Origin: Candidatus Yonathbacteria bacterium RIFCSPHIGHO2_02_FULL_44_14
GTDB taxonomy: Bacteria > Patescibacteriota > Minisyncoccia > Phycocordibacterales > UBA1550
Length of the DNA stretch: 64,000 nucleotides
Reading direction: 5' to 3'
Assembly: GCA_001823535.1 (NCBI GenBank)
Contig: MHUT01000012.1
Location: 355-64,354 of the forward strand
Positions within the stretch are counted from its first letter, which is position 1, and every line of letters begins with the position of its first letter. A program made the translations under genes and the position numbers. Under the pieces are notes generated by a model. The model was not told the origin of the DNA, did not search any database, and saw only the letters and a list, made by a program, of their open reading frames with translations. Shown here piece after piece: positions 19,368 to 33,552 of the stretch.

Positions 19368-19455
19368 TGGTGCCGAGGACCAGGGTTGGTCACGGATTAC
19401 TAAGTCTTCTCGTTTGCTTCGCAAACTGTGAGGACTAAGTATCCTCTACCCCGGC
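19368..19455 (-). pseudogene. degenerate tRNA-Phe-like fragment (duplicated tRNA 3' end, att-scar candidate)
   Basis: The 21-nt TGGTGCCGAGGACCAGGGTTG at 19368-19388 is identical to the 3' end of tRNA-Phe (19586-19606). The upstream sequence can pair as a GCCGGGG/CCUCGGC acceptor stem, but the T-loop lacks GTTC and no canonical anticodon arm is present. Confidence 0.4.
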
Positions 19456-19542
19456 TCGCAATTTTTGAAAAAGTCATGAAGAAAACTTTTTCAAAAATAT
19501 TGCTGCGCCTTTCAACCCTTTTATAATGCTCCGCACATTTAT

Positions 19543-19596
19543 CCTCGGCACCATAAGAAAAACCACCCGCAGGTGGTTTTTCTTATGGTGCCGAGG
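19543..19596. terminator. 25-bp-arm palindrome overlapping the tRNA-Phe 3' end (terminator-like)
   Basis: CCTCGGCACCATAAGAAAAACCACC-cgca-GGTGGTTTTTCTTATGGTGCCGAGG; the right arm includes the tRNA-Phe acceptor 3' strand plus CCA. Confidence 0.6.
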
Positions 19597-19661
19597 ACCA
19601 GGGTTGAACTGGTGACCCCTCGCTCTTCAGGCGAATGCTCTACCAACTGAGCTACCTCGGC
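19586..19661 (-). tRNA. tRNA-Phe (anticodon GAA), CCA encoded
   Basis: Reverse complement GCCGAGGTAGCTCAGTTGGTAGAGCATTCGCCTGAAGAGCGAGGGGTCACCAGTTCAACCCTGGTCCTCGGCACCA. Confidence 0.9.
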
Positions 19662-19684: not shown

Positions 19685-19750
19685 TTTATGGCCGAGCCTG
19701 CGTCCAAGACGTGAATTTGTTAATTCAGAATCTGCTGATTCGGCTACATC
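19685..19750 (-). repeat. copy B of the ~60-nt conserved palindromic upstream element, 24 nt upstream of tRNA-Phe
   Basis: TTATGGCCGAGCCTGCGTCCAAGACGTGAATTTGTTAATTCAGAATCTGCTGATTCGGCTAC is 63/66 identical to copy C. Confidence 0.6.
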
Positions 19751-21791: not shown

Positions 21792-22286
21792 TTACAGTAG
21801 TTTACCATTTTTATACCACTCCATCGTAATGATCTGACCTGCTTTTTTAGATACTCCAAAGACTATGTATAATCCAAGCCTATAACCATAGCCATCCAGC
21901 CTTTGAGTCAATCCTTCTATTTTCCATATGTCGTCTCGAGCTGGGCTATTATTGGTTTCAATTTCTATGGCAACCAGATTATTTTGATCAGTATTTCTTT
22001 CGTGAACAGCTATATCCAACTCTATTAATTTACCTTTTAAGTATTTAGAGGCGCCTAGATGTTTATTATAAAAAGGATCACTGTGGATGTCACCAGTGTT
22101 AAATTTTTTGGATATTTGTGCTGCAAAACAAGACATAAAATTTCTTTCGACTCTGCCATTCTTCAAGATACCAATCTCGGCTTCGATTGTAGAATTTGCA
22201 GCACTTTCAATTTTGGACATCAGGTCTGCTTCTTCTTTAGTAATTTGTTGTTGACTGTTTGGCATATTAAAATGTGTGCACGACAA
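21792..22286 (-). CDS. hypothetical protein (164 aa) downstream of mrr
   Basis: Clean ORF with a hairpin terminator at 21745-21785; no family recognised. Confidence 0.5.
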   Translation of the reverse strand: MSCTHFNMPNSQQQITKEEADLMSKIESAANSTIEAEIGILKNGRVERNFMSCFAAQISKKFNTGDIHSDPFYNKHLGASKYLKGKLIELDIAVHERNTDQNNLVAIEIETNNSPARDDIWKIEGLTQRLDGYGYRLGLYIVFGVSKKAGQIITMEWYKNGKLL

Positions 22287-27496: not shown

Positions 27497-28045
27497 TTAA
27501 AGTTTCCATTCAATGAACGCGAAGTTCTCTGTCGTGAGGCCATAATCAAGAGACTTCTCGAGCCACTGTATTTGGGTCTCCCGAATATTGTCTTTCTTTT
27601 GACGCTTGAGTTCAATGAACAACATCATATCTCCTTTCCACACGAACACATCCCAACAACCACCAGACCGACCAGTCTTGGCACGGATGGAGTCAATTAA
27701 TTCTTTTTGTTTTTGTGGAATCTCTATGGGGTCAACAACATCAGGAAGACCGACTCTGTAATTTCTTCTGTACGAATCAACCCATACGCCATTCCATCCA
27801 TGTGATTGAAGCAAACGCAAAACGGCGAGCTCTGCAAATACAGGCTCGCCGTTCCAATCGACAACTGGTTTGTTGTTATATGTGTTAGGTATCGATGCTC
27901 CTTTCCATGGAGTGAGTGTAAGAAAATATTTCTGCATGGAAATTTGCTCACCCGAAGGAAGCGAGAATATTTCGCCATCAACTTTGTATGGTTGTAAAAA
28001 CTCAAGATTACCTTCTTGAGAAGTATGAGTATGGTCGTCGTCCAT
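27497..28045 (-). CDS. VRR-NUC domain nuclease (PD-(D/E)xK)
   Basis: GGCWDVFVWKGDMMLFIELKRQKKDNIRETQIQWLEK (D...ExK plus the QxxW tail typical of VRR-NUC). Start set at the MDDDHTH ATG (28045) because the track's upstream extension lies in an inverted-repeat region. Confidence 0.65.
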   Translation of the reverse strand: MDDDHTHTSQEGNLEFLQPYKVDGEIFSLPSGEQISMQKYFLTLTPWKGASIPNTYNNKPVVDWNGEPVFAELAVLRLLQSHGWNGVWVDSYRRNYRVGLPDVVDPIEIPQKQKELIDSIRAKTGRSGGCWDVFVWKGDMMLFIELKRQKKDNIRETQIQWLEKSLDYGLTTENFAFIEWKL

Positions 28046-28786
28046 ATTTGTTCGTCGCGATTTTGTTATACCTAATTTGGGGTACAAAAAGCCCGCTACC
28101 AGGAAGGCACCTTGCGGTAACCTCTACCAGAGTTTCCCCTGGTAACGCGACGAACGCCCTGATAACGGGTTCTTTATGTTCGTCGCGATTTGCAGCCATA
28201 CCCTAAAGATTTTTGAAACCCTTTAGGGGTTAGGCCGACTTCTATGAAGTTGTAAGTGCATTGTAGCAGAAAATCTGCTACTCCTCCATTTAAGCTTAGT
28301 TCTGAAGATTTGTGTAGCTCAGTTGTCTACACCTGTGGATAACTCAATTTACACTGTCCCGCGAAAAACCGTGATGGAATTTGAGTATTTTTCAGCTCAT
28401 CTCTATCTATTTACACTACTGACATCCTTGACAGAAAAAATCAAAAAAGTGGCTAAAAATCTATTGCAATTTTTATAAATCAATGAAACAATATGTATGT
28501 TAGCTCATTTCATATTTATAAATACCTGTCGCTTACGCGACAAACGCTCCTATCTTCAGAGGTGAATGCCAAGGCAGACTGAAGCGAGGGTCGTTGATAG
28601 GATTTACATATAACAACTGATCGGTACTGGGGTCACAAGCCAGAAAGGTGTCCGATGAAGAACTGTAAATCGAGTAAATAACAAACGGAAGTTTGTCGTT
28701 TATTTGATTTACAGTTTTTTGTATATCAATAAACGTCAGACATCCATTTGAGATGTGCTGACGTTTATTCGTTATTAACAAAAAAT
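28046..28786. promoter_or_regulatory. 740-bp noncoding region: candidate origin / operator region of the island
   Basis: Three copies of GTTCGTCGCG in alternating orientation (28052, 28146, 28178). AT-rich stretch with two TTTATAAAT motifs (28468-28528). Multiple nested inverted repeats (28660-28716; 28728-28769, ending 18 nt before the ParB-MTase ATG). Confidence 0.45.
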
Positions 28787-30109
28787 ATGGATATTAAAAT
28801 CACGTATGTGCCTATTGGTTCTTTGAATCCAAGCACATACAATCCACGCAAGTGGAACGAGGCGCAAACTAATGCACTCAAAGAATCGATTACAAAGTTT
28901 GGAATAGTTGACCCCGTCATTTGCAACTCTGCATCTGAACGAATGAACACGGTGATTGGCGGACACTTTCGATTGAAGGTTGCTAAAGACCTCGGACATA
29001 CTGAGATGCCAGTGGTCTATGTAAATATTCCTGATATCGAGAAAGAAAAAGAACTAAATGTGCGATTGAATAAGAACCTCGGTGAGTTTGACTTCGAGCT
29101 TCTGAAAGATTTCGGTGAAGCGTTCCTCGGCGAAATGGGTTTTAGCACTGAAGAGCTTGATAATATATTTGCGATTGACCCAACCCCAGAAGTATTCGAC
29201 TTGGAAAAGGAGCTGGAGAAGCTCAACATTCACGAAATTAAAGTAGAGAAGGGTGACATATACGAAATTGATGGATCACGGCTCATGTGTGGTGACAGCA
29301 CTATTGAATCCGACATGCTGAAACTGATGGAAGGAGCACAGGTGGATATGGTATGCACTGATCCCCCCTATATTTTGGACTACCTCAAAGGGAAAACAAA
29401 ACAAAAGGACGGAGTGACTGAAGGGTTCGGACTGAAGAAGAATCGTAAGTATCTTGAGACAGATGTGCTGCCATACAACTTCACAGAACTCTGGATGGCA
29501 AGCGTGGCAAAGGTGCAGAAGCCAGACTTCTCTATCATGATATTTGAGCATCCAAAGAATCTCCGCACTATCTGGAATGAATTGGAGAAACACTGGAAAT
29601 ACCGCAACACCATTACATGGCATGTTCCCAATCGTGTGCAGGGATTTGCGGCTAAGTACAAATTCTTTAACAAGAGTGATATCGCTCTGGTTGGCACTGA
29701 TGGAGAGATAGCTCTTAATCTTGAGACAGAGAGTGACGAGCTTTTTCAGAATGAATACGAGAATGCAATCTTTGCAACTTCTGGGAAACCTCATTTCGAG
29801 TCATATGAGAAAGGCAAGAAGATTTGTCCAACTGATTTCATTGACCATATTGCGGCCGACGAAAAATCTTCGGGGCAAGGAATTATCTTTGGCACAAAGC
29901 CGTTAGAATTATTGATCCCCTACATCAAGGTACTGACCAAACGTGGTGACTTGGTGCTTGAGCCATTCGGTGGATCAGGAAGTACACTCATTGCTTCGCT
30001 GAAGCTTGGGCGTAATTGTCGCATCATGGAAAAGTCCCCCGTGTATACGGAAGTGATAAAGGGTCGTTGGGAGAAGCACACGGGAAAGAAGGCGAAGAAG
30101 ATTAACTAA
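28787..30109 (+). CDS. ParB/Srx-like nuclease domain fused to a beta-class N6-adenine/N4-cytosine DNA methyltransferase
   Basis: N-terminal ParBc-like region (YVPIGSLNPSTYNPRKW...GGHFR). Motif IV DPPY (MVCTDPPYIL) precedes motif I (LEPFGGSGSTLIAS), which is the beta-class order. ATG at 28787 is chosen. Confidence 0.85.
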   Translation: MDIKITYVPIGSLNPSTYNPRKWNEAQTNALKESITKFGIVDPVICNSASERMNTVIGGHFRLKVAKDLGHTEMPVVYVNIPDIEKEKELNVRLNKNLGEFDFELLKDFGEAFLGEMGFSTEELDNIFAIDPTPEVFDLEKELEKLNIHEIKVEKGDIYEIDGSRLMCGDSTIESDMLKLMEGAQVDMVCTDPPYILDYLKGKTKQKDGVTEGFGLKKNRKYLETDVLPYNFTELWMASVAKVQKPDFSIMIFEHPKNLRTIWNELEKHWKYRNTITWHVPNRVQGFAAKYKFFNKSDIALVGTDGEIALNLETESDELFQNEYENAIFATSGKPHFESYEKGKKICPTDFIDHIAADEKSSGQGIIFGTKPLELLIPYIKVLTKRGDLVLEPFGGSGSTLIASLKLGRNCRIMEKSPVYTEVIKGRWEKHTGKKAKKIN

Positions 30110-30899: not shown

Positions 30900-32189
30900 A
30901 TGGCGAGGGAGATTCAAGCCCCCGTAAGGGTTAAATATTGCCTGTACGCGAGAAAAAGTACAGAAAGTGAAGAACAGCAGGTCTTATCGATTGATAGCCA
31001 AATTAAGGAGATGCTCCAAATGGCAGAAAGGGACCATTTGGAGATTGTGGAAATCAAGAAAGAATCGCACTCGGCAAAGGAGGCTGGGCAACGGCCTGTC
31101 TTTAACGAGATTGTCGAGGAGATTAAAAGCGGTAAATTCAACGGCATCCTCACTTGGGCACCAGATCGCATCTCAAGAAACGCGGGAGACCTAGGGAGAA
31201 TTGTTGACTTGATGGATTCAGGCAGACTTCACGAGATACGCACCTATGGGCAGAAATTTAGCAACAACCCGAACGAGAAATTCTTACTGATGATCCTCGG
31301 ATCACAGGCGAAACTCGAGAACGACAACAAGGTGGTCAATGTAAAGCGTGGGTTACGTGCGCGATGTGAGATGGGTCTGTGGCCGTGTACCGCCCCTACT
31401 GGATACCTAAACAGTACTAATACCGAGAGAAGCTGTCATGTAGAAGTTGATATCGAGAGGGCTCCTATAATAAAGAAAATGTTTGAGAAAATAGCATACG
31501 AAGGATATAGTGGTCGCAAAGTACACTCATGGTTAAAAGACGAGATGAAATTCAAAACAAGAAATGGTAAACCTCTCAACGTAGGTAACATTTCTTTAAT
31601 ACTGAGAAATACTTTCTACTATGGAACCTTCGAATACCCGAAGAAGGGCGGGCAATGGTATCAAGGAAAACATACGCCAATAATAACCAAGGAGCTTTTC
31701 GACAAAGTGCAGGAGAGCCTCGTGGGCTACTCCACAAACAACGCAAGCAAAGAATTCGCCTTCACAAAACTGCTAACCTGCGGACTGTGCGGATCAGGGA
31801 TTACTGCCGATGAGAAATTCAAGAAACAACAAAATGGAACAGTACATCGGTACGTCTACTATGGATGTTGCAGATTTAGAGACAAAAACTGCAAATCAGG
31901 GTACATGCGAGAAGAGGATTTAATAGATCAACTTGCAGAACTCATGGATGAAATTCACCTTAATGAGATAGGGATGAAGGAAAAAATAAAAGAAGAAATC
32001 GAACGACACAAGAAATTCGAATCAGGATTACTTGGTATAAAGAGTACAACGGTAAAAATTGCCGACATCGACATACGAAACTACGCAAAATATATTTTGA
32101 GAGATGGAAAGACCTCAGAAAAACGAGAATTACTAACCTGCCTGAGGAGTAAGGTAACGATGGCGGAGAAACGGATTAAAATTAGTTAA
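30900..32189 (+). CDS. large serine recombinase (integrase/resolvase family)
   Basis: Catalytic YCLYARKSTESEEQ with the Ser nucleophile, a recombinase domain and a C-terminal zinc ribbon CGLCGS...YYGCCRFRDKNC plus coiled coil. ATG at 30900 is chosen; the track's TTG start at 30816 overlaps the upstream hairpin. Confidence 0.85.
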   Translation: MAREIQAPVRVKYCLYARKSTESEEQQVLSIDSQIKEMLQMAERDHLEIVEIKKESHSAKEAGQRPVFNEIVEEIKSGKFNGILTWAPDRISRNAGDLGRIVDLMDSGRLHEIRTYGQKFSNNPNEKFLLMILGSQAKLENDNKVVNVKRGLRARCEMGLWPCTAPTGYLNSTNTERSCHVEVDIERAPIIKKMFEKIAYEGYSGRKVHSWLKDEMKFKTRNGKPLNVGNISLILRNTFYYGTFEYPKKGGQWYQGKHTPIITKELFDKVQESLVGYSTNNASKEFAFTKLLTCGLCGSGITADEKFKKQQNGTVHRYVYYGCCRFRDKNCKSGYMREEDLIDQLAELMDEIHLNEIGMKEKIKEEIERHKKFESGLLGIKSTTVKIADIDIRNYAKYILRDGKTSEKRELLTCLRSKVTMAEKRIKIS

Positions 32190-33283
32190 CTATTAGACCT
32201 ACTTCTGTATGACTCCAAAGATCCAGCGACCTCCTGCTTTTTCAGCGACTTAATTTTTAGAATAATCTCGTTTGAATATCTAGTTAAATCGCCCTCATTA
32301 GATCTCCAACAATACCTAGGGTCTTCTTTGAGTTTAAACTTAAAACATATAGCTTGAAAAGTGTAGGGTGTAAATTTCTCACCATTTAAGGATCCAATTT
32401 TTTGAACTATGTTTTTTTGACGCCATGGGTGTGTAATATTTGGATCTTGTATCTTTGTTATAATTAATGGGCCTCCTGTCGCACCACGTACACCATCAAC
32501 CCCTGCAACGAAATCAGCTTTTTCGATTTTTTTAACTGATTGTACGGAAACATTAAATATTGTCATTAGCCTAGCTGTATCATCTCCAGCCTTTTCAACC
32601 TCCTCCAAGCTTGCAACTAATGTATTCATGAACTGCCTGACTGCTGATCCTTTTGCGGTTGTATTTTTCGATCCTTGAGAAATATACTTTACAGGGTCGA
32701 TTGGTGGTTCAATCCCCAAAGGGATGAGTTGCCACGAAATATCGTGGGCTAAATTCTTTCCAAATATTTCTAGAAGTAAATCTTTAAAGTTAATTATATT
32801 TGTTTGTGCAAGTGAGTAAATTAAAATGCCAAAATTTTTTTCATTGTAAAAATGTACTGCGTTATCTCTGTATGTACTCAGAAGGCTGAGATTGGCACGA
32901 AGTGGTAAAGTTGGTATTTTTTTAGGAAAAAATTTTTCTGCTTTGGTAAAGGCATCTGTCATAGACATTGTTCTGTATGGTTCATTTCTTTTTTTTCGAT
33001 AGTATATCGAACCCCTATTTTTTGAAATAATAGCTTTAAGCAACAACTCCCATGAGTTCAGAAGTAGAATAACAAAAGTCTCCTCTCTATAGAGAAAGCT
33101 TGGTTTATTATATATTTCTATTGACGCAAGCAATGCACTTTTTGCATTCCGAAATAAGTGTCGCGAGGAGCCTTGGTAGTTCATTATTACAATAATACAC
33201 TTATTTACACACGAAAAAAGCACCCAATTATTCCTCTCGGTAAAACCAGAGAGGGCATTGAAAATGCATAGTTTAAATACCAT
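32186..33283 (-). CDS. hypothetical protein, possibly abortive-infection / defence-associated (365 aa)
   Basis: Helical N-terminal domain with RHLFRNAKSALLASIEIYNKP; family not firmly recognised. Convergent with the recombinase, overlapping by 4 bp. Confidence 0.55.
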   Translation of the reverse strand: MVFKLCIFNALSGFTERNNWVLFSCVNKCIIVIMNYQGSSRHLFRNAKSALLASIEIYNKPSFLYREETFVILLLNSWELLLKAIISKNRGSIYYRKKRNEPYRTMSMTDAFTKAEKFFPKKIPTLPLRANLSLLSTYRDNAVHFYNEKNFGILIYSLAQTNIINFKDLLLEIFGKNLAHDISWQLIPLGIEPPIDPVKYISQGSKNTTAKGSAVRQFMNTLVASLEEVEKAGDDTARLMTIFNVSVQSVKKIEKADFVAGVDGVRGATGGPLIITKIQDPNITHPWRQKNIVQKIGSLNGEKFTPYTFQAICFKFKLKEDPRYCWRSNEGDLTRYSNEIILKIKSLKKQEVAGSLESYRSRSNS

Positions 33284-33362: not shown

Positions 33363-33437
33363 TGGTGCCCTCGGCAAGAATCGAACTTACATCTAATCCT
33401 TAGGACGGATCTGTTCTATCCATTGAACTACGAGGGC
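33363..33437 (-). tRNA. tRNA-Arg (anticodon CCT), CCA encoded
   Basis: Reverse complement GCCCTCGTAGTTCAATGGATAGAACAGATCCGTCCTAAGGATTAGATGTAAGTTCGATTCTTGCCGAGGGCACCA. Confidence 0.85.
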
Positions 33438-33490: not shown

Positions 33491-33552
33491 TTATGGCCGA
33501 GCCTGCGTCCAAGACGTGAATTTGTTAATTCAGGATCTGCTGATTCGACTAC
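33491..33552 (-). repeat. copy C of the ~60-nt conserved palindromic upstream element, 54 nt upstream of tRNA-Arg
   Basis: TTATGGCCGAGCCTGCGTCCAAGACGTGAATTTGTTAATTCAGGATCTGCTGATTCGACTAC. Confidence 0.6.

Follow-up and report, generated by a model that had tools for sequence, protein, structure and literature searches.

What is the function of the long non-coding spacer (positions 28046-28786) that separates two divergent genes in a 64,000-nucleotide stretch of contig MHUT01000012.1, from Candidatus Yonathbacteria bacterium RIFCSPHIGHO2_02_FULL_44_14? This whole stretch is referred to here as the window. To the left of the spacer lies an open reading frame (ORF) of 182 amino acids encoded by the minus strand (ATG at 28045), the product of which is a nuclease homologue, and to its right a ParB-methylase gene encoded by the plus strand (start at 28787). 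A preliminary description of the spacer had taken a set of short repeats as iterons which, with an AT-rich DNA unwinding element and the adjacent ParB-like gene, would fit a replication or partition origin, or else a complex operator. The analysis described below led to a different answer. The repeats are arms of helices in an RNA that belongs to the known LOOT family and is encoded by the minus strand, this RNA is found in a constant position ahead of an ORF, and two competing sets of helices within it both covary among related loci. We consider it probable that LOOT and a platform at its 3' side constitute a two-state 5' leader that controls the nuclease/restriction-modification operon.

All the sequence features of the preliminary description were recovered in place. 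The most prominent one, the 10-mer GTTCGTCGCG, is present three times in mixed orientation in less than 140 bp, at 28050-28059 (+), 28146-28155 (-) and 28178-28187 (+). These were the only exact copies in the 64-kb window, none of them outside the spacer, compared to a chance expectation of about 0.1 exact copies. Both copies in the plus orientation belong to a 15-nt direct repeat, TGTTCGTCGCGATTT, and a further copy with one mismatch was located at 28536-28545. The hairpin made by CCCTAAAG and CTTTAGGG was recovered at 28201-28228.

A scan of the spacer with the Rfam models revealed a full-length match to LOOT RNA (RF03000) on the minus strand, from 28236 to 28104, covering the complete model (1-121/121) with 70.0 bits, compared to a gathering score of 46.4, and E = 4e-11. 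Since 2017 LOOT has been known as an orphan motif, listed as a small RNA of uncultivated lineages of the candidate phyla radiation (Weinberg et al., PMC5737381; Rfam 14/15 papers, PMC7779021 and PMC11701678), and no functional work on it was found in the searchable literature. Two of the GTTCGTCGCG copies (28178-28187 and 28146-28155) correspond to the two arms of LOOT helix P3, and the CCCTAAAG hairpin corresponds to LOOT P1.

The LOOT core (28104-28236, minus strand) comprises helices P1, P3, P4 and P5. Read on the RNA strand, it begins with the P1 hairpin (CCCTAAAG/CTTTAGGG; 28194-28236), which contains an internal loop of the type CCUAAC/UAUGG, followed by the 5' arm of P3 (28178-28187), here called box a, which reads CGCGACGAAC. 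Next to it, segment b (AAAGAACCCGUUAUCAGG; 28158-28175) includes an AAAG internal loop, the inner strand of P3 and its loop, and the 3' arm of P3 (28146-28155), here called box a', reads GUUCGUCGCG. The core ends with the P4 hairpin (28125-28144), capped by a conserved GAAA tetraloop, and the P5 hairpin (28104-28124), with a GNRA-type loop (GCAA), the latter also within the Rfam match.

The conserved unit does not end with the Rfam model, but extends about 60 nt further and reaches the start codon of the nuclease gene. A covariance model of this extended unit (LOOT core, hairpin P6 and box a2), named R1 and built in this analysis with 186 positions, matched 28044-28236 of the minus strand over its whole length (1-186/186) with 121.6 bits. 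Within the extension, segment b'' (CCUGGUAGCGGGCUUUUU; 28086-28103, minus strand) is complementary to segment b at 17 of its 18 positions, has a U-run at its end and forms the 5' strand of P6. The 3' strand of P6, segment c (CCCCAAAUUAGG; 28071-28082, minus strand), is thus an alternative partner of b''. The third putative iteron (28050-28059, minus strand) is here called box a2; it repeats box a, lies outside the Rfam model, reads AAAUCGCGACGAACAAAUAUG on the RNA strand, ends 4 nt 5' of the start codon and can pair with a'. Consequently, each of a' and b'' has two possible partners, a' being the switching strand between a and a2, while b can pair either locally or with b''.

To place this arrangement in a wider context, related loci were retrieved through the downstream nuclease protein, which yielded 118 of them, 38 from genomes and 80 from metagenomes. 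More than 200 nuclease homologues were detected at 64-99% identity, all in Patescibacteria, and the Rfam scan located LOOT directly upstream of the gene, in its orientation, in most loci of the candidate phyla radiation (CPR), compared to none (0) among non-CPR homologues. The full-length extended unit was detected by Rfam and R1 in 65 of 119 sources, always as a single copy, with one in the window. LOOT was on the strand of the gene in all matches except one (L034), and every same-strand match whose flanks were examined was located 5' of an ORF and contiguous with its start. The gene directly following LOOT was in some loci a different one, coding for an SNase homologue or for a fusion of HNH and VRR-NUC, and there too a2 preceded the ATG in this way. 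Those nuclease homologues that lacked LOOT also lacked the ParB-methylase module. The LOOT-bearing loci belonged to Yonathbacteria, Nomurabacteria, Paceibacterota, Saccharibacteria and metagenome-assembled genomes of Patescibacteria; the name of the family comes from the lineages OD1, OP11 and TM7. Other RNA matches in the retrieved loci were a group I intron (L019:391-606), a transfer-messenger RNA (L026:3030-3474) and a fluoride riboswitch (L038:10515-10582).

Box a2 was kept among these loci as a principle and not as a sequence, each locus carrying a copy of its own P3 5' arm ahead of the ATG. The distance from the end of a2 to the ATG was 1-4 nt in 14 loci. The box types found were CGCGACGAAC, CGTAGGAC, CCCGCTAGAG, CCGTCCAAGG, CCTTCCCAG and CCGTGCAAGG, plus the single-base variants CGCGACAAAC and GCAACGAAC, and a, a' and a2 changed together. 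As a2 tracks P3 in every locus, a' can therefore pair with either the 5' arm of P3 or the start region. In elements of the CCGTCCAA type (L012, L014, L020, L049 and similar ones) a third a box was observed right after the ATG, with the sequence AUG AAA UCC GUC CAA CCC, which encodes MKSVQP, the first codons of the nuclease, so that in these elements a' could pair before or after the AUG.

The helices were then assayed for covariation by counting pairs on 55 distinct aligned sequences. In the core, the outer stem of P1 was paired in 97% and P5 in 88% of the cells, whereas P4 (8 pairs) reached 95.5%, every one of its pairs showing changes on both sides, and had a GAAA loop in nearly all the aligned sequences. 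For the outer part of P3, a:a' (10 pairs) had 96% of the cells paired and 9 pairs changed on both sides. The competing helix a':a2 (12 pairs) had 11 pairs changed on both sides and 74% of the cells paired, a value lowered by register errors in minority box types. The other competing helix, b:b'' (18 pairs), had 90% of the cells paired and 12 pairs changed on both sides, and with 17 of 18 positions paired it was present in 17 of the 17 loci first examined. When the 3' partners were slid by 1-3 columns as a control, pairing dropped to 35-50%. An alignment-free comparison gave a similar picture, with the longest perfect a':a2 run averaging 11 bp within a locus, compared to 5.2 bp when loci were swapped. 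Therefore, two mutually exclusive sets of helices, a:a' versus a':a2 and b:b' plus b'':c versus b:b'', each show covariation. G-U pairs were present in both a':a2 and b:b'', which argues for selection acting on a minus-strand RNA rather than on DNA repeats. It was this covariation of the 10-mers, G-U pairs included, that pointed to the transcribed structured RNA or untranslated region which the preliminary description had named as evidence that would speak against its own proposal.

Folding predictions pointed in the same direction. RNAalifold selected b:b'' unprompted from an alignment that was itself fitted to the competing structure, and the minimum free energy structure obtained by RNAfold for the sequence of the window also contained this helix (-81.2 kcal/mol, z = -5.1). 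In constrained folds, the two nested states lay on average no more than about 6 kcal/mol apart, and the a':a2 duplex had a mean of about -21 kcal/mol. Such near-equal energies of the nested states are the balance expected of a switch.

From these results, the following explanation is proposed. The leader would extend from about 28258 to 28043 on the minus strand, thus occupying the left 190-215 nt of the spacer, and would be transcribed together with the gene. In State 1, equivalent to the Rfam LOOT fold, P3 would be closed through a:a' and the inner stem b:b', and P6 (b'':c) would be formed, leaving a2 and the AUG single-stranded and allowing ribosome initiation. In State 2, b'' would invade the weak apical part of P3 from the conserved AAAG loop to make a helix of 17-18 bp with b, and the a' strand so freed would clamp a2 over 10-13 bp ending 1-4 nt 5' of the AUG, the resulting pseudoknot hiding the initiation region. 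In this scheme, State 1 would be the ON and State 2 the OFF form, with the integrity of P3 as the decision point between them. The P1 internal loop may also have a part in this decision. Its sequence across the loci was CCUAA(C/A)/(U/C)AUGG, with covariation between the A/C and C/U positions, close to the consensus CCUAAG/UAUGG of the 11-nt GAAA-tetraloop receptor (PMC2615604), and it is probably a candidate docking site for the GAAA loop of P4. Docked there, the P4 loop would be a probable brace of P3 or of one of the two states. The trigger would most likely be a protein or ligand that stabilizes P3, or simply kinetic refolding. The U-run that closes b'' may contribute some transcription termination, although little weight is given to this step.

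Several points weigh against this explanation. The loci were retrieved through the nuclease and not through LOOT, so that the linkage is one-directional and any LOOT copies elsewhere would be missed. The exceptional locus L034 carries LOOT on the opposite strand without an a2 box, and the a2 of L022 is weak. As the alignment was fitted to R1, the pair counts lean to its structure, and the support for P6 was weaker (61-71% paired) in a poorly aligned stretch. The pseudoknot of State 2 is beyond the scoring of the tools used, and its energy is a rough sum. The U-run of b'' is broken up in some loci and covaries with b, making a terminator role doubtful, and its consideration as a dedicated terminator was accordingly downgraded. 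Besides the tetraloop and the receptor-like loop, few unpaired nucleotides are conserved, unlike what is typical of aptamers for small molecules. The type assigned to LOOT in Rfam (RF03000) is "Gene; sRNA", that of a small RNA (sRNA) gene and not of a leader. Finally, a scan of both strands of 27900-28900 with the sigma-70 consensus gave no match, for which reason the promoter calls made here rely on cross-locus conservation alone.

The remaining 500 nt or so of the spacer had a different character. Positions 28237-28454 were 84% identical to L001, the closest relative, whereas 28455-28803 could not be aligned to it. About 25 nt upstream of LOOT, a -10-like TACAAT (28260-28265) is overlapped by a hairpin or inverted repeat (28263-28281); this TAnAAT motif was conserved in position among related loci, while the sequence of the overlapping inverted repeat was variable. 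On these grounds, the region 28260-28281 (minus strand) is the probable promoter or operator of LOOT. The blocks YTAAGCWWGGRWTG and CTTCGCAA were also conserved across loci. A single, perfect DnaA box (TTATCCACA; 28334-28342, minus strand) lies about 100 nt upstream of LOOT, and a DnaA box (up to 1 mismatch, up to 300 nt upstream of LOOT, either orientation) was detected in 40 of 46 unique loci, compared to an expectation of about 0.06 per locus. Next to it, repeats of the TGTMAAT type, 9-mers on the minus strand between 28346 and 28426 (GTAAAT at 28347 and 28409, TGTCAGT at 28418), kept their position in relatives, where they were often phased by 9 nt. Their density was 5.2 per kb in the spacers and 1.1 per kb in the flanks (about 4.7-fold), and GTAAAT was found 6 times in the spacer of the window versus 0.59 expected (P about 2e-4). 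More broadly, 9-mers of the TGTAAAT/TGTCAAT type were observed at 28347-28424, 28602-28607 and 28664-28712.

Towards the ParB-methylase gene, the long imperfect inverted repeat was recovered at 28658-28719. It is part of a 31-bp hairpin made from the inverted 9-mers TGTAAATCG and AGTAAATAA and followed by UUUUUU (28655-28725, plus strand; z = -9). The arms of this hairpin (28655-28721) thus consist of the TGTAAAT/TGTCAAT-type 9-mers themselves. As an RNA, this hairpin was more stable on the plus strand (-34.2 kcal/mol) than on the minus strand (-20.2 kcal/mol). The prediction for the plus strand is thus a stable hairpin followed by a U-run, as in intrinsic terminators, and the strand bias together with the U6 tract suggests that the ParB-methylase/TerS operon has an element resembling a terminator in its leader. 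The nested 12+5-bp inverted repeat was also recovered (28728-28769, plus strand; -20.4 kcal/mol, z = -5.9), with its end 18 nt 5' of the ATG at 28787. Shorter terminator-like hairpins with a U-run were observed in the spacers of L001, L046 and L049. It may be speculated, by analogy, that this hairpin-bearing ParB-methylase leader resembles a late-operon leader that needs antitermination.

Overall, the remaining spacer fits a divergent promoter/operator region of a mobile element plus a terminator-containing leader. Of the two roles offered by the preliminary description, the complex operator held in a general sense: more than 35 loci have the same divergent arrangement, and the central spacer carries the conserved DnaA box as well as the TGTMAAT repeats, which that description had not mentioned. 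A role of the spacer as a control hub between the two arms is plausible. For 28300-28786 alone, it could be argued that the DnaA box and the phased 9-mers are not simple operators, but an origin-like site or a DNA site of the pac/cos type bound by TerS. The recurrence of the DnaA box in most loci is in its favour, as are the enrichment of the 9-mers, phased by 9 nt in about half of the loci, and the presence of TerS-like neighbours and, in some loci, of TerL. However, the DnaA box is single and no replication gene was found beside it, the 9-mers are missing in about half of the loci and such motifs are inflated by an AT-rich composition, and nothing in these data separates operators of divergent promoters from ori or pac functions. 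We therefore regard this proposal as rather unlikely, although it is the strongest of the competing ones.

A second proposal concerns LOOT itself, which could be an independent sRNA acting in trans, ending at the U-run of b'' or at an early-coding hairpin, and repressing through a' the mRNAs of nucleases, including those of sister elements. The hairpin in question, followed by a U-run and flagged as terminator-like, spans codons 9-15 of the nuclease mRNA (28001-28020, minus strand). A hairpin was observed at this place in most related loci, although the part of the N-terminus that its 5' arm encodes was poorly conserved. A trans-acting sRNA would be in keeping with the Rfam type, with these two candidate 3' ends, with the discrete a-box types, which resemble specificity classes, and with the extra a box right after the ATG in some loci. 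In contrast, LOOT and the ORF are always contiguous, with no space between them in which a separate promoter could fit, the U-run is broken up in some loci and covaries with b, and pairing in cis is kinetically favoured over pairing in trans. Thus, an independent sRNA appears improbable, with the caveat that this proposal shares ground with the leader explanation and that the two are not strict alternatives.

The a and a2 boxes could also be considered at the DNA level, as direct repeats for a programmed excision of the LOOT core or as the target-site duplication of a small insertion. In two loci (L040:4940-5000 and L003:5940-6000) the LOOT core was deleted exactly between a and a2, the remnant being the 3' half of P1, one a box and the ATG, as in the product of an exact recombination between both boxes. 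A close relative in which the core is missing between a and a2 encodes a nuclease 87% identical and is devoid of the recombinase/TerS/ParB-methylase module, and the upstream flank of the LOOT-core-deleted locus matches positions 19387-19510 of the window. Despite the exact junction, a2 copies that diverge from a still pair with a' through G-U (e.g. in L001), b:b'', P4 and P5 covary as RNA, and in L040 the rest of P1 has decayed and the recombinase module is gone, which looks like loss. A programmed excision or an insertion scar is for these reasons very improbable.

Least credible of all, and close to dismissal, is an island replication or partition origin in which GTTCGTCGCG iterons next to an AT-rich tract would be bound by an initiator or ParB, since, in spite of the three exact copies within 140 bp, the adjoining ParB-domain gene and a conserved DnaA box about 150 bp away, the alternating copies map exactly on the RNA helices of a covariance-model match, the 10-mer sequence varies in relatives while the pairing is kept, G-U pairs included, neither a Rep-like gene nor a parS consensus was found, and the AT-rich block is missing in L001 and structurally insignificant. 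Iterons are direct repeats of conserved sequence; the 10-mers alternate in orientation and vary between loci. Annotation of the neighbouring proteins gave no Rep-type initiator gene near the spacer, and the parS-type palindrome TGTTNCACGTGAAACA had no match in the spacer even with up to 3 mismatches allowed. Regarding the supposed unwinding element, the duplicated TTTATAAAT was recovered (28472-28480 and 28514-28522), but the AT-rich inverted repeat it belongs to (28462-28530) folded no better than shuffled sequences (z = -0.33), was rejected as a structure and is not kept in L001. The GTCGC-ttac-GCGAC hairpin was also recovered (28527-28542; -8.8 kcal/mol, z = -4.0). Around the one-mismatch copy of the 10-mer at 28536-28545, a search for a second or decayed LOOT with R1, filters off, returned noise only. 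The interpretation of the 10-mers as iterons, of the AT-rich block as an unwinding element and of both with the ParB gene as an origin was thus abandoned, and a replication origin in this spacer is unsupported.

The gene that the proposed two-state leader would control (27497-28045, minus strand) encodes a protein of 182 amino acids that is a homologue of PD-(D/E)xK nucleases, of the VRR-NUC/Hjc-like type, with a weak VRR_NUC match. Comparison of homologues revealed E72, D132, E145 and K147 as invariant residues, and an AlphaFold2 model (predicted local distance difference test score, pLDDT, of 79) matched weakly the VRR-NUC domain of FAN1 and Hjc resolvases. No match for this protein was obtained in PHROGs or PADLOC. 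When the neighbouring genes were clustered, more than 35 loci turned out to share a conserved module, one side of which consists of a serine recombinase, a TerS-like helix-turn-helix protein and the ParB-methylase, followed by a spacer of 230-550 nt, and the other of LOOT, the nuclease and a variable cargo, in this case of restriction-modification genes. In some loci a terminase large subunit (phrog_38, 4e-59) takes the place of the recombinase. The island is regarded here as a phage-derived mobile element of CPR bacteria. A single locus was found in viral contigs, suggesting that the element is not a common phage in IMG/VR.

Regarding the limits of the island, a 62-bp direct repeat, 97% identical, was observed at 19686-19747 and 33491-33552, flanking 13.8 kb. 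Both copies are located immediately 5' of a tRNA gene on the minus strand, tRNA-Phe (19586-19661) and tRNA-Arg (33363-33437), respectively, and the repeats could be attachment sites or just similar tRNA promoters. Some 200 nt away from the complete tRNA-Phe gene, its 3' end is partly duplicated (TGGTGCCGAGGACCAGGGTTGG; 19368-19390), which may be a trace left by a previous integration event. At the island edges, a candidate defence gene of the DUF3644/PDC-S19 type (32186-33283, minus strand; E = 1e-127) and an ORF weakly similar to PD-Lambda-3_A (21792-22286, minus strand) were also observed.

When compared with known systems, the RNA described here is a member of the LOOT family, sharing with RF03000 helices P1, P3, P4 (GAAA) and P5 as well as its occurrence in CPR/Patescibacteria. 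In contrast to the Rfam entry, the unit is about 60 nt longer due to P6 and a2, abuts a start codon, contains helices that compete with P3 and is tied to a specific mobile-element module. The apparent novelty therefore lies in the expression platform at the 3' side, in the helices that compete with each other, in the constant genomic surroundings and in a proposed move of LOOT from the sRNA class towards that of cis-acting leaders. Translational riboswitches, with their anti-Shine-Dalgarno and anti-anti-Shine-Dalgarno strands, likewise have one strand, equivalent to a', with two exclusive partners, one in the sensor domain and one in the ribosome-binding region. The difference would be that the OFF state proposed here is a long-range pseudoknot with a second exchange, that of b'' between c and b, and that the switching boxes are hypervariable between elements.

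In hok/sok and in the pT181 and pIP501 leaders, competing long-range pairings govern a potentially harmful or tightly dosed gene of a mobile element, with a metastable co-transcriptional fold opposed to a more stable final one and with boxes that differ between elements. The LOOT leader may be likened to this kind of leader attenuation on account of its competing pairings and element-specific boxes. Unlike those systems, no antisense RNA or promoter was found in the scan of 27900-28900, the product is a PD-(D/E)xK nuclease homologue instead of a membrane toxin or a Rep protein, and the GNRA loops and the receptor-like motif suggest a defined three-dimensional fold. An analogy with type III toxin-antitoxin systems was also considered and dropped, as the RNA does not consist of tandem repeats and the protein does not belong to the RNases of the ToxN/AbiE type. 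Iteron-type origins of plasmids and phages are comparable in that their short repeats are accompanied by a DnaA box and AT-rich DNA in a spacer beside a ParB-domain gene; however, the 10-mers are here mutually inverted, unconserved arms of RNA stems with no Rep gene found nearby, and of the repeats in this spacer only the TGTMAAT 9-mers, a separate set, behave like binding sites of a protein. A more general lesson is that alternating short repeats beside the start of a gene are more likely RNA helices than iterons.

Beyond the control of a single operon, we put forward tentatively, as a possibility clearly less likely than the two-state leader itself, that LOOT could serve as the sensor domain in a class of riboregulators that has yet to be described. 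By means of a pseudoknot with double strand exchange, these would gate the expression of nucleases and defence cargo in a widespread family of integrative elements, derived from phages, of CPR bacteria, and the hypervariable a, a' and a2 boxes would be element-specific addresses for control in cis and for an immunity-like control in trans between related elements. At the level of the family, the orphan LOOT motif now has a testable model with defined mutations, and at the level of its hosts a recurrent island architecture of CPR bacteria, with restriction-modification cargo, becomes defined around the LOOT control region.

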